Below are positions 12,662 through 20,435 of a stretch of DNA of 20,543 bases, one piece after another (the first letter of the stretch is position 1; each line of letters opens with the position of its first letter). The stretch is from a virus. Its lineage: Duplodnaviria > Heunggongvirae > Uroviricota > Caudoviricetes. The stretch lies in the IMG/VR virus record IMGVR_UViG_2734482572_000001, one strand, 5' to 3'. The notes beneath the pieces were generated by a model. The model worked only from the letters and a program-made list of their open reading frames with translations, was not told where the DNA came from and searched no databases. The translations under genes were made by a program, and so were the position numbers.

Positions 12662-16342
<3,681 letters not shown>

Positions 16343-16368
<26 letters not shown>

Positions 16369-16888
16369 TCAGCAACCCCGGTATCAGTTCATCCAGCGCG
16401 GCTGCTTTGTTCATGGCTTTGATGATATCCCGTTTCAGGAAATCAATATGCCGGTTATCCAGCTCAGGAAAACGTCGCTGCACCGACAGAGGAATACCGT
16501 CGAGAATACTGGATATTTCCCTTGCTATACGCGACAGCACGAAAGTACAGAATGCGGTTTCCACCACTTCAGCCGATTCTTTGGCATTTTTCAGTTCCTG
16601 CGCCGTCGCCTGAGCACGAGTCAGGCGATGGCGCTCAAATTCAAGTGTTCCTGGGTGAAGATCTGCCTCGCTGGCCAGCCGCAGTTCTTCAACCTCCCGG
16701 CGCAGCTTTTCGTTCTCAATTTCAGCATCCCTTTCGGCATACCATTTTATGACGGCGGCAGAGTCATAAAGCACCTCATTACCCTTGCCACCGCCTCGCA
16801 GAACGGGCATTCCCTGTTCCTGCCAGTTCTGAATGGTACGGATACTCGCACCGAAAATATCAGCCAGCTGCTTTTTGTTGACTTCCAT
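16343..16888 (-). CDS. nu1: Terminase small subunit Nu1
   Basis: 181-aa ORF near-identical to lambda gpNu1 (MEVNKKQLADIFGASIRTIQNWQEQGMPVLRGGGKGNEVLYD...). Confidence 0.96.
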
Positions 16889-17110: not shown

Positions 17111-17147
17111 AAGATGAGAATAATTATCACTTGCATTAATATCCGGC

Positions 17148-17319
17148 TTCTTCCACCATCGCACCGGACGGGCGACTATGAGGGACAAAACCGCGCACCA
17201 TAAACGCGGTAAAAACCCGGTGTGCATCGTTTTTGATTATTCCCGCACACTCGCGCAGAAGGAGTTCCCCGTCGGGCTACGGTCATGGTTAATGCGGGAA
17301 TACAGCGACGATACAGCGC
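17148..17319. repeat. Direct repeat copy A, about 172 bp, roughly 93 percent identical to copy B
   Basis: Hand alignment of 17148-17319 against 18933-19103 gives about 10 mismatches and one 1-nt indel; shared core cggtaaaaacccggtgtgcatcgtttttgattat...gttccccgtcgggctacggtcatggttaatgcgg. Confidence 0.85.
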
Positions 17320-17435
17320 ATGATGTGTCAGGCTTGAATACATTTATCCGTTAAAAGGGATATCAGTTAAGTTATCCCGTGTAGGGTATAAGCCATTATC
17401 AAAGCCACTCAGTAGCGAATGGCTTTTGTAATGGA

Positions 17436-17885
17436 CTATTTAATTAGTGATGCTGCGTATTCGATTAGATATAACTTAGGTGCCAACCAGATTTTTAACC
17501 ATGTCATATTGGTTACTACAGCAATAATAAAACTTACCCACAGAACAAAAACTGCTGCTAATGGTAAGATAAGAAAACTAATCTCACCGTTACTTTCCCA
17601 AATCATAGTCGGTTTGTATTTAGGCTTCCCTTCTTCCCATGACCATCCTTCATTATCGAACTTACCAATTTCAACTTTTTGGTACTGTTTCTTCATAAAC
17701 CAAATAACCAGCGGAATTGTTGAAATTGCTATTAATGTTTTAATCAGGCTATCAACCATATTCCATACCAGCAACTGATGAACAACATCCGGAATCTGTG
17801 CCTGACTGAATGCAATGGCGGAATCAATTCCATCGCTGGCCTTCTTCAATAAATCAACAAGAATTTTATTTGCTTCTTCTTGCAT
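17436..17885 (-). CDS. Hypothetical membrane protein, 149 aa, 2-3 predicted transmembrane helices; second gene of the cargo cassette
   Basis: ATG at 17885 with AGGA 8 nt upstream; hydrophobic stretches TLIAISTIPLVIWFM and ISFLILPLAAVFVLWVSFIIAVV; sampled lines are about 33 percent GC versus about 57 percent in the lambda genes; no family recognised. Confidence 0.6.
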   Translation of the reverse strand: MQEEANKILVDLLKKASDGIDSAIAFSQAQIPDVVHQLLVWNMVDSLIKTLIAISTIPLVIWFMKKQYQKVEIGKFDNEGWSWEEGKPKYKPTMIWESNGEISFLILPLAAVFVLWVSFIIAVVTNMTWLKIWLAPKLYLIEYAASLIK

Positions 17886-18009
17886 GTTTATATCCTGTAA
17901 GTTGTAAGCCTGTTCGAAAAAAAATAAACAACTACGAGAGACAGAAAAAATATCTCAGGCTCTCTTTCTATAAGCTTTTAGTTGAGGATGTTCTGCAAAA
18001 CAAAACTGG

Positions 18010-18870
18010 TTAGTTATGTAACTGCTTCCGGAATACAACAGCCGACGTGCTACAACGTAAAATTCGCTTGATTGTGGCAGTTGAGGAAACAGACTTGCAT
18101 TTCTCAACATCATCAATAATGACCACATCCGGTACAGGAATGACGCGGGTATGCAATGTTTTTGCACTAATAACATCACAGCCATTCAGTGGTCGAATAT
18201 CTGCATCTTCAGGCACTACCAGAAGCACACGTTTTTCCGGTGCAGAAAAGCCAGCAGCAAGAGTGCGTGACAATAAAGTCATTCCGCTGCATGGCTTCAT
18301 ACAAATTTCAGAAATATGATTCTTTTCGTCCAAATGATGCTGGACATCATTTTTATCATCACTCAACAACTCTGCTGTTAATACAATCCCTGCTGTCTCA
18401 GATTTCCAGGAAATGCTGATATCCTGATCATCTGCATCAACATCATATTCCATCGAGTAAGGACTAAAGCTACGTCCAACGAACGCATCATTTACCAGTA
18501 CACGCCCACCCTGTCTGACCTGAAAGTCAACGCGCCCTGAAAGCTGATTTGCTGTTACAAGCAATGCCTTTTTTCTTTTTGTTTTATTGCTCATTGCCAC
18601 CAACTGTTCAGCCATCTCTCTTGTCACACTACCAGAAACTCTTTCTTGAATTTTCACAGAAAATTTTCTGGATGTAGTAGCATCGACATTAAAAAATCTG
18701 GATGTCATCAGGCAGTTATTAACAATTGGCATCAGCTCACTTACGATTGTAAAAAATTCCCGGTAAAGCTCATTTTGCTTTTCAACACACAGCTTTCCAC
18801 AATCGTCCAGCTTACGCTCAAGAGCACTTAACCTTTCCATTATTGAATTAATTTTTTGCAACTCTTTCAT
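18010..18870 (-). CDS. Hypothetical soluble protein, 286 aa; first gene of the cargo cassette
   Basis: ATG at 18870 with AGGAGG 5 nt upstream; starts MKELQKINSIMERLSALERKLDD (helical, coiled-coil-like), two C-x3-C pairs (CGKLC, CMKPC), C-terminal VLLVVPEDADIRPLNG...VVIIDDVEK segment. The ORF-track start at 19131 adds 87 codons through repeat B and is not supported. No family recognised. Confidence 0.65.
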   Translation of the reverse strand: MKELQKINSIMERLSALERKLDDCGKLCVEKQNELYREFFTIVSELMPIVNNCLMTSRFFNVDATTSRKFSVKIQERVSGSVTREMAEQLVAMSNKTKRKKALLVTANQLSGRVDFQVRQGGRVLVNDAFVGRSFSPYSMEYDVDADDQDISISWKSETAGIVLTAELLSDDKNDVQHHLDEKNHISEICMKPCSGMTLLSRTLAAGFSAPEKRVLLVVPEDADIRPLNGCDVISAKTLHTRVIPVPDVVIIDDVEKCKSVSSTATIKRILRCSTSAVVFRKQLHN

Positions 18871-18893: not shown

Positions 18894-18911
18894 GTGCGAC
18901 CACGGTCGCAC
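18894..18911. promoter_or_regulatory. 18-bp palindrome GTGCGACC-AC-GGTCGCAC, candidate operator 24-41 nt upstream of the 286-aa gene start
   Basis: Perfect 8-bp inverted arms with a 2-nt spacer between repeat B and the cassette RBS; a second copy lies at 19114-19131. Confidence 0.4.
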
Positions 18912-18932
18912 GCTCCTGAATACATGCCCTGT

Positions 18933-19103
18933 TTCTTCCACCCTCGCACAGGACTGGCGAGCATGAGGGACAAACCCGCGAATCATTAGCGCGGTAAAAA
19001 CCCGGTGTGCATCGTTTTTGATTATTTCCGCACACTCGCGCAGAGGAGTTCCCCGTCGGGCTACGGTCATGGTTAATGCGGAAATACGGCGACGATGCAG
19101 CGC
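18933..19103. repeat. Direct repeat copy B, about 171 bp, paired with copy A
   Basis: Same alignment as copy A; lies between the DUF4406-like gene and the cassette. Confidence 0.85.
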
Positions 19104-19113
19104 GGTATTTAAT

Positions 19114-19131
19114 GTGCGACCACGGTCGCAA
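19114..19131. promoter_or_regulatory. Second copy of the palindrome (GTGCGACCACGGTCGCAa), about 20 nt downstream of the DUF4406-like stop codon
   Basis: 7-bp perfect arms tgcgacc/ggtcgca; same motif as 18894-18911, placed on the opposite flank of repeat B. Confidence 0.4.
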
Positions 19132-19150: not shown

Positions 19151-19462
19151 TTATGCTACAGAGGAACAAGCTGGCGGGTAATTCAGCGTAGTGAATACCG
19201 GCATCTCCATCTTGTATGCGTAATGATACTCAGCAGTTGCTCCAGCAGACGCTTTCCAGCCAGGAAGCATCAAAATAGCATCAGCACAACGAAGCATTGC
19301 AAAGCAAATATCCATGTATTCACGTTGTGTCAGACCATTAGGCAAAGTGGCTGGATTCAAGACAGAGTGACCATGTCGTGACAAACGATCTGCCTCTTTA
19401 TTAAAGGCGTCACGATTAAAGTTCTCATATCCCGTCATTGGCCCGGCAATATAAATTTTCAT
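19151..19462 (-). CDS. Small DUF4406-like protein (nucleoside 2-deoxyribosyltransferase-like fold), 103 aa
   Basis: ATG at 19462, TAA at 19151-19153; N-terminal MKIYIAGPMTG followed by LNPATL and a C-terminal acidic/aromatic segment, a pattern I recall for DUF4406 proteins; assignment is from recall, not a profile search. Confidence 0.55.
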   Translation of the reverse strand: MKIYIAGPMTGYENFNRDAFNKEADRLSRHGHSVLNPATLPNGLTQREYMDICFAMLRCADAILMLPGWKASAGATAEYHYAYKMEMPVFTTLNYPPACSSVA

Positions 19463-19503
19463 TCACTATCCAACAAATTGAGCTCGTTTTTGATACAGAG
19501 GTA

Positions 19504-19941
19504 TTAATTCAGGCATTGCGTCTTGATGTATTCCTGCAAGTAGTTAACCTGCGCAGTTATCCTGTCGATCCCACTTCGGAGACGGTAATAATTGAGTTCA
19601 GCATCTGCTGTAAGTCTTGGGCTTTCTCCATTGCCCATGCCGCTGGCTCCGGTCGTTGACTTTGCACAGGTGGCGGCGACTTGCAGGCGCTTACGCCCAG
19701 CAGAAACATCAGCACGGAGGCTTTCGATAGTCGCGTTAGCATCAGCAAGCTCCTTTGTATATCTGGCATCGAGTTCCGCTACGTCACGTTGACGCTTCTG
19801 CATATCAGCGATTGTGGATGTGGCTTTATCGCGCTGCTCTTTGTAGGCGATGGCGTTATCACGGTAATGATTAACAGCCCACGACAGGCAGACGATGATG
19901 CAAATAACCAGAGCGGAGATAATCGCGGTTACCCTGCTCAT
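19504..19941 (-). CDS. Rz: Spanin inner-membrane subunit Rz (i-spanin)
   Basis: ATG at 19941 overlaps the R stop (ATGA); N-terminal TM helix [23 protein letters not shown] then coiled-coil periplasmic domain; resembles phage 21/DLP12 Rz. The ORF-track start at 19953 is a GTG four codons upstream. Confidence 0.88.
19557..19742 (-). CDS. Rz1: Spanin outer-membrane lipoprotein subunit Rz1 (o-spanin), embedded in the +1 frame of Rz
   Basis: [20 protein letters not shown] lipoprotein signal with lipobox VSAC followed by proline-rich [13 protein letters not shown]; entirely inside Rz. Start could instead be the upstream ATG at 19769. Confidence 0.7.
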
Positions 19942-20435
19942 TGTTGACCCCACAAACAGACTTCACGCTCAATCTCACGACGAGTCATCAGGCCTTTCCA
20001 TTGCTTACCGCCAGCAGATATCCAGCGACGTAGCTGATCACATGCGCCTTTGATATCGCCCTGGTTTATTTTGCGAAGAAGCGTCGATGTTCTGAAATTA
20101 CCAGCACCCACGTTGTAAACGAACGAGTAAAGAGCGCCGCGCGTTGTTTCCGGTATATCGACTTTGATGTACGGGTTAATTTGTCTGGCGACAGTGGCAA
20201 GGTCTTTATTCAGGAGAGCTTTGCATTCTGCTTCGGTATACGTTTTACCAGGCATGATGTCTTTTCCGGTGTGTCCGTGACATACAGTCCATACACCAAT
20301 GATATCTTTGTATAGTATGTAGCTGACACCTTCCAGACCATCGTTACCACCTGGGCCAGTGATTAACACAGATGCTATAGCAACAGCCCCGCCACCAATA
20401 GCAACTGCAACAGCCTTGCGTAATGATGGCGACAT
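19938..20435 (-). CDS. R: SAR endolysin (lysozyme R of the phage 21 / DLP12 RrrD type), 165 aa
   Basis: N-terminal signal-anchor-release segment [23 protein letters not shown] followed by a lysozyme domain; near-identical from recall to R21/RrrD; GAGAGGTG RBS upstream of ATG 20435. Confidence 0.92.

Follow-up and report, generated by a model that had tools for sequence, protein, structure and literature searches.

Between the spanin gene Rz and a long direct repeat, the 20,543-nucleotide stretch of tailed-phage DNA analysed here (the window) carries a small gene of the DUF4406 family, and beyond the repeat follows a two-gene cassette. This arrangement raises the question of what the small protein does and whether it acts together with the cassette or is independent of it. 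A first-pass annotation of this DNA had reported a 103-aa open reading frame at 19151-19462 that begins with MKIYIAGPMTG and lies between Rz and the repeat named repeat B. Both the frame, which is read on the minus strand, and its placement are borne out by our analysis, and the start codon lies 41 nt past the stop codon of Rz (Table 1). The minus strand of the window carries the final part of a late region of lambdoid type, in which lysozyme R, Rz (with Rz1 embedded), the DUF4406 gene, the 286-aa and 149-aa ORFs of the cassette, Nu1 and terminase A follow one another in this order.

Table 1. Coordinates of the DUF4406 gene and of the features around it in the window.
Feature	Position	Strand	Remarks
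Terminase A	14443-16368	-	
Nu1	16343-16888	-	
Right ~188-nt direct repeat	17132-17319		Between cassette and cos/Nu1
Two-gene cassette	17436-18870	-	286 aa at 18010-18870 and 149 aa at 17436-17885; PHROGs 2571, 3054
Second palindrome copy	18894-18910		Just upstream of the 286-aa gene start; terminator-like on the minus strand
Left ~188-nt direct repeat (repeat B)	18917-19103		Repeat families D1 and D2
17-nt palindrome GTGCGACCACGGTCGCA	19114-19130		20 nt past the DUF4406 stop
DUF4406 gene	19151-19462	-	103 aa, N-terminus MKIYIAGPMTG; ortholog of phage N15 gene 57
Rz-DUF4406 spacer	19463-19503	-	41 nt; weak GGA Shine-Dalgarno ~8 nt before ATG
Rz (i-spanin)	19504-19953	-	Pfam Phage_lysis, E = 8e-37; upstream neighbour of DUF4406
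Rz1	19557-19769		Embedded in Rz
Lysozyme R	19938-20435	-	

Family, fold and relatives of the 103-aa protein

The Pfam profile of DUF4406 (PF14359) matches the 103-aa protein with a score of 117.4 bits (E = 3.7e-34; gathering cut-off 22 bits) over profile positions 1-90 of 91, and a precomputed PF14359 match is present in every listed homolog. PHROG 355, which bears the name 'nucleoside 2-deoxyribosyltransferase', matches with an E-value of 3e-45. The Pfam profile of the nucleoside 2'-deoxyribosyltransferases (NDTs) themselves, Nuc_deoxyrib_tr (PF05014), gives 20.7 bits, which is under its cut-off of 28.8 bits, and the DUF1937 score is also below threshold. No match was found when the protein was searched against the NCBIfam profiles or, as a single sequence, against the PDB; a PDB search with the DUF4406 family profile returned NDT matches only, all of them sub-significant.

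The AlphaFold2 model of the protein, for which 59 homologs were used as input, has a pLDDT of 94.3 and a pTM of 0.87. Strands and helices alternate in the predicted core (four strands and three helices), the chain stops ~12 residues past the last strand and its tail is predicted to be disordered. Comparison of this model with the PDB using Foldseek retrieved NDTs, the DUF1937 protein 1t1j, MilB, BcmB, BlsM and DNPH1/Rcl only, all with a probability of 1.00 and a query-normalised TM-score of ~0.7. The Rossmann-like alternating fold superposes on solved members of the NDT/DNPH1/MilB superfamily, which gives membership at the level of the fold. The earlier assignment to DUF4406 and to an NDT-type fold is thus confirmed by the Pfam profile, the AlphaFold model and Foldseek. 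The protein is a minimal, standalone member of this superfamily with a core of ~90 aa and, as judged by its sequence, falls outside the NDT family proper (PF05014).

Among the solved relatives, the NDTs of PF05014 (T. brucei 2a0k, Leishmania 6qai and L. leichmannii 1f8x) give the best Foldseek E-values (2e-4), and the top matches are mostly nucleoside-specific NDTs. The N-terminal IYIAGP motif and the catalytic Glu of the DUF4406 protein align with those of the NDTs. However, the DUF4406 protein is ~50 residues shorter, is without the C-terminal contribution to the active site, has Ser in place of an Asp and remains under the Pfam threshold. It shares ~20% identity, with no significant sequence match, with DNPH1/Rcl (2'-deoxynucleoside 5'-phosphate N-hydrolase) and with MilB/BcmB/BlsM (N-glycosidases of CMP or hydroxymethyl-CMP), and is ~40-60 residues shorter than these enzymes. 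In DNPH1/Rcl a C-terminal extension donates a Ser across the dimer, whereas DUF4406 has no such extension. DUF1937 (PF09152; PDB 1t1j, P. aeruginosa APC5043) is 20% identical to the DUF4406 protein and likewise uncharacterised. In the literature on DUF4406, N15 gp57 and NDT-like proteins of phages and mycobacteriophages, we found no functional study.

For this large family, 633 phage records and a minimum of 6,685 protein clusters were counted. Of 5,426 complete E. coli genomes, 38 carry the gene of the window at 99-100% DNA identity, and in these it is annotated 'DUF4406 domain-containing protein', and the genes of RefSeq DUF4406 proteins from E. coli prophages and phage-plasmids (e.g. WP_001555423.1) reach a DNA identity of up to 100%. 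Sixteen of the 41 genomic places of the gene in E. coli are ~46-kb replicons labelled plasmids, which is consistent with N15-like linear phage-plasmids. The copies in PhiR46_1 and YDC107_1 (the latter a Ravinvirus) are 99.7% identical in DNA and encode a protein 100% identical to that of the window. The product of N15 gene 57 (NP_046953.1) is ~84% identical, of equal length, and occupies the equivalent slot between the lysis genes and cos (the N15 gene order is holin, lysozyme, gp55, gp56 and then gp57, with cos beyond). The neighbours differ, as N15 has the small gp56 upstream of gp57 and a C5-cytosine methyltransferase (gp58) and gp59 downstream, whereas in the window Rz/Rz1 lie upstream and the two-gene cassette downstream. 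The gene of the window is the counterpart of N15 gp57, an already catalogued DUF, and as a gene it is nothing new.

The dN/dS ratio of the gene is 0.02-0.09 where it could be estimated against orthologs; against N15-type and Klebsiella-type orthologs, dN is 0.1-0.15 and dS is saturated. The gene is conserved and under purifying selection. Because of its Pfam and PHROG scores, its thousands of homologs and its dN/dS, the ORF is far beyond a chance reading frame. One copy (locus L024, 6001-6309) has a premature stop at codon 48, with the cassette still downstream, and is probably a pseudogene.

Position after the spanins and the variable slot downstream

The proteins of the window and other neighbours were mapped on 80 viral contigs that encode a relative. 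In all 65 loci where the relative is at least 69% identical and the upstream side is visible, the DUF4406 gene lies directly 3' of the spanin genes. This position is kept across three unrelated lysis-cassette types (lambda R/Rz, N15 gp54-56 and the Klebsiella type with separate i- and o-spanins) and with both packaging types (lambda-type Nu1/A and HNH-plus-TerS). On the downstream side, 12 loci carry the full cassette, 4 carry only a 286-aa gene cut down to its N-terminal 193 aa, 1 has the 149-aa gene alone, 9 have nothing before Nu1 and 7 (N15 included) have a C5-cytosine methyltransferase; in other loci the HNH gene follows directly or one of at least five further unrelated ORFs is present. 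The interval from DUF4406 to cos/Nu1 is a hypervariable slot. The gene had earlier been described as inserted directly after Rz. The position is correct, but the DUF4406 gene is the conserved element, orthologous to N15 gp57, and the variable insert is located downstream of it. Across loci L001-L063, at least 10 alternative contents of the slot between DUF4406 and the packaging genes can be told apart; N15 gp59, a Phage_Tail_Tip-like ORF of 280 aa and several orphans of 227-313 aa are also among the occupants. The PADLOC defence models matched none of the slot occupants.

In N15-type phages a DNA methyltransferase gene begins within the DUF4406 gene (gp57/gp58 of N15; L087 2734-4042), and a similar overlap is present in the distant actinophage WheatThin of Gordonia (gp64/gp65; L095 1492-2585). 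A partnership of DUF4406 with a DNA methylase, as these two pairs (N15 gp58 and WheatThin gp65) would have it, was considered and rejected since the association is inconsistent, being seen in 7 of the 65 close loci and in 1 of 7 distant phages. The overlap may be coincidental; a connection with the metabolism of methylated nucleotides or of SAM/SAH is conceivable.

The first-pass annotation had also raised the idea that the DUF4406 gene acts with the cassette, and in the strongest form of this idea the DUF4406, 286-aa and 149-aa genes would make up one three-gene system. The window and PhiR46_1 indeed have the three genes adjacent and co-oriented, as do no more than 25 of the 38 gene-bearing E. 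coli genomes, and the cassette adjoins the DUF4406 gene in G749 and CFSAN029787. However, the DUF4406 gene is found at the same position with or without the cassette, which is one of the outcomes that the first-pass annotation had named as a refutation, and a check of co-occurrence gave all combinations: the gene alone, the gene with a partial cassette (a truncated 286-aa gene, or the 149-aa gene alone) and the cassette alone. The gene occurs without the cassette in loci L010, L014, L016 and L022, in the N15 group and in the Klebsiella group, and without the full cassette in at least 13 of the 38 E. coli genomes (a bound obtained from the counts, as 3 of the 28 cassette genomes are outside the 38), and at least eight unrelated downstream genes are found behind it. 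In turn, the E. coli strains EC12 and TUM1886 have the cassette but no DUF4406 gene, and in them KilA-N or other small genes precede it. Moreover, the DNA between the two contains a conserved palindrome as well as a repeat prone to recombination. Because either occurs without the other and the cassette has a direct repeat of its own, DUF4406 and the cassette are independent modules, and our data show that DUF4406 assorts independently of the repeat-flanked cassette. A three-gene system is therefore hardly credible, and it is the only one of the rival readings considered in this work that is actively contradicted by the data. Pfam and PADLOC searches of the cassette proteins found no family; by eye, the 149-aa protein resembles a membrane protein in its hydrophobic stretches.

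From the DUF4406 gene to the cassette, the DNA contains, in order, the palindrome, repeat B and the second palindrome copy. The two ~188-nt repeat copies that bracket the cassette are 86-95% identical. In cassette-less phages the gene is followed by one palindrome, a single, partly hybrid repeat copy and then cos/Nu1; of these, L010 and L016 each keep one repeat copy, and that of L010 is a hybrid of both. Comparison of the repeats indicates that the cassette is gained or lost by homologous recombination between them. The right repeat overlaps a small plus-strand ORF (17178-17354), which RefSeq places in the YlcI/YnfO family in TUM1886.

On the upstream side, alignment with PhiR46_1 and YDC107_1 reveals a sharp mosaic breakpoint at ~19536, inside the 3' end of Rz. 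An identity of ~97% to these two phages extends from the DUF4406 gene across the spacer into Rz, where it takes in the last ~33 nt (11 codons) and then collapses; the spacer by itself is ~97% identical although most of Rz differs. Rz alleles that are 99% or about 58-60% identical at the protein level stand beside DUF4406 proteins that are 100% identical. Since the breakpoint lies within the 3' end of Rz and a conserved palindrome is present on the far side, the DUF4406 gene is a mosaic module of its own.

A 14-nt perfect palindrome, GCGACCACGGTCGC, is located at 18896-18909 and 19116-19129, where none is expected by chance, and is present in 57 of the 92 fetched loci (e.g. L087 4064-4077, which is N15 45563-45576). 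It is conserved in sequence at module edges, with matching placement in the three groups (E. coli, N15-type and Klebsiella-type phages). One copy is located ~20-25 nt past DUF4406 or, if a C5-methyltransferase gene intervenes, past that gene, and most loci have a further copy ~3 kb upstream. The palindrome next to the DUF4406 gene of the window marks the distal edge of the lysis-DUF4406 block. In N15 it is annotated as a putative terminator; we do not adopt this annotation, as its RNA stability does not exceed that of shuffled sequences (z = -0.06) and a U-tract is missing. The palindrome may be a protein-binding site or a recombination boundary site.

A scan of the minus strand between Rz and DUF4406 found no promoter-like or terminator-like site (the scan used the sigma-70 consensus only, and expression in the lysogen may also occur). 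As neither a promoter nor a terminator separates the two genes, DUF4406 is presumably read through from the late lysis transcript, of which it would be the last gene. Late expression is no general trait of the family, because homologs of 63-68% identity occupy early regions. In other enterobacterial prophages, such paralogs (L071 and L081) belong to the early region, downstream of replication genes and DUF977 and upstream of Ead/Ea22-like genes.

Candidate active site and proposed activity

In an alignment that reaches vibriophage, Pseudomonas and actinophage members, the residues Y4, G7-P8-M9, G11, N16, N36-P37-A38, W69, S72, G74-A75 and E78 are invariant, so that Tyr4, Ser72 and Glu78 are present throughout. 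Within the enterobacterial subfamily, the conservation of Asp51 is at least 90%; vibriophage and actinophage members have E, R or K at this position. In the profile alignment, E78 coincides with the nucleophile Glu of the Leishmania NDT (GTAFELGYA) and Y4 with the NDT Tyr. Alignment of DUF4406 with rat Rcl using hhalign pairs Y4/Y13, D51/D69, S72/S87 and E78/E93 with negligible statistical support; the numbering of the Rcl sequence in this alignment fits the published residues. The equivalences of residues between DUF4406 and the characterised enzymes rest on motif spacing together with the fold match.

In human DNPH1 the catalytic triad is formed by Y24/D80/E104. S98, which precedes the nucleophile by six residues, binds the 5'-phosphate together with a second ligand, S128', which comes from the C-terminal helical extension of the partner subunit (PMC10603095). 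The spacing of Ser72-x5-Glu78 in DUF4406 is the same as that of the phosphate-binding Ser and nucleophile Glu of DNPH1 (S98/E104). NDTs, which use nucleosides, have at the position of S98 an Asp (D92 in L. leichmannii) that binds the 5'-OH of the nucleoside, and the general acid is an Asp both in NDT (D72) and in DNPH1 (D80). DUF4406 thus carries an invariant Ser72 where NDTs carry the 5'-OH-binding Asp, six residues before the nucleophile Glu. In the model of the DUF4406 protein there is no segment equivalent to the C-terminal extension of DNPH1 with its second phosphate-binding Ser, and the phosphate pocket would therefore be incomplete. In contrast to the DNPH1/MilB group, the general-acid Asp is not conserved family-wide in DUF4406.

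The domain is also found in fusion. Gp162 of the Mycobacterium phage Wanda (L085 1986-2711) joins DUF4406 to a MazG/PRA-PH domain and is annotated only as 'MazG-like pyrophosphatase'. In a survey of fusion partners with a diverse alignment, the best 120 of at least 6,685 matches were almost all standalone proteins. PHROGs 12019 and 15484 also contain a DUF4406 domain; PHROG 15484 was considered as a second type of fusion and dropped, as the example checked, WheatThin gp64, is standalone. The label 'deoxycytidylate deaminase', which recurs in actinophage records (Shambre1 gp62, Arthrobacter, L086 1992-2321), is attached to plain DUF4406 proteins and is likely a misannotation.

The spacing of Ser72, the glycine-rich loop Gly7-Pro8-Met9-x-Gly11 and the DUF4406-MazG fusion point to a 5'-phosphorylated substrate. 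We consider it probable that the protein, as an ortholog of N15 gp57 encoded in a module of its own, is an N-glycosidase acting on a 5'-phosphorylated nucleotide; the activity of DUF4406 would in this sense be predictable in kind. In such a retaining N-glycosidase, Glu78 would attack C1' of the sugar, Tyr4 would position the sugar and Asp51 would serve as general acid in the enterobacterial subfamily. The substrate would be a nucleoside 5'-monophosphate (dNMP or NMP) and the products the free base and (deoxy)ribose 5-phosphate, by which the nucleotide pool might be adjusted or sanitised during phage development. A fusion of the Wanda type would perform two steps, from NTP/dNTP to the monophosphate and from there to base and sugar phosphate.

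The PHROG 355 name, the NDTs at the top of the Foldseek matches and the many phage records so annotated (PHROG, SEA-PHAGES) suggest another reading, in which the protein is a true nucleoside 2'-deoxyribosyltransferase that swaps bases between free deoxynucleosides for salvage or depletes one deoxynucleoside. Active NDTs have been found in dZ phages, and depletion of a deoxynucleoside was proposed there (bioRxiv study), but these belong to PF05014 and not to DUF4406. Further, the Pfam NDT model stays sub-threshold, the position of the 5'-OH-binding Asp is taken by an invariant Ser as in the nucleotide-specific DNPH1, the C-terminal part of the NDT active site is absent from a protein ~50 residues shorter, and the MazG fusion points to nucleotides. 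We therefore regard a true NDT as unlikely. It can also be asked whether the fold has been kept while the chemistry was lost, which would leave a non-catalytic nucleotide-binding protein acting as a sponge or regulator. The very small size of the protein, which is without the C-terminal elements of the characterised enzymes, and the variation of Asp51 across the family agree with this. However, Glu78, Tyr4 and Ser72 are invariant even in very distant members, which is typical of retained catalysis and makes a non-catalytic role very improbable.

Conflict-related substrates and meaning for phage biology

DUF4406 belongs to the same broad fold class as the NDT-like effector of retron Ec86 (Eco1) and the TIR-domain NADases, which perform N-glycosidase chemistry on adenine nucleotides. 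The previously suggested link of the fold to conflict systems holds for this wider class (TIR domains and the Ec86 effector) but not for the DUF4406 protein, for which a PADLOC search that included the retron NDT-like effectors gave no family at E <= 0.1. Unlike the retron effector, DUF4406 is phage-encoded and standalone, with no reverse transcriptase, ncRNA or sensor. The fold class nevertheless raises the possibility of a counter-defence or exclusion enzyme, which would cut the glycosidic bond of an immune signal or cofactor (NAD+/ADPR-derived signals, cyclic nucleotides, SAM/SAH) or of a modified nucleotide of a competitor phage (hm-dCMP or hm-dUMP, for which the structural relatives MilB and DNPH1 have a preference). 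Besides the missing PADLOC match, we found no support for it in the literature. The late-operon position is ill-suited against early-acting defences, the consensus scan detected no promoter for lysogenic expression, and the adjacency to methylases is inconsistent, as described above. This reading is therefore doubtful, and we rate it as unlikely. A wider version of it, in which a DUF4406 N-glycosidase with such a conflict-related substrate (an immune signal or cofactor, or hm-dCMP/hm-dUMP of a competitor) also marks a defence hotspot, is quite unlikely. If it were true, the fixed gene and the palindrome would define the entry of a hypervariable defence and counter-defence hotspot between lysis and packaging genes in N15-like and related phages.

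The finding is an ordinary one, since RefSeq already has identical entries for the gene and N15 gp57 is its ortholog. For studies of the cassette it provides negative evidence, and the 286-aa and 149-aa genes can be treated as a self-contained module without DUF4406. The DUF4406 gene together with the palindrome makes a handy landmark for the variable moron slot in N15-like phage-plasmids. Among the small phage enzymes that are uncharacterised, DUF4406 proteins are some of the commoner ones, in temperate as well as in lytic phages, and the Ser-x5-Glu motif and the MazG fusions offer for them a concrete and cheap hypothesis, namely that they may act as nucleotide N-glycosidases.
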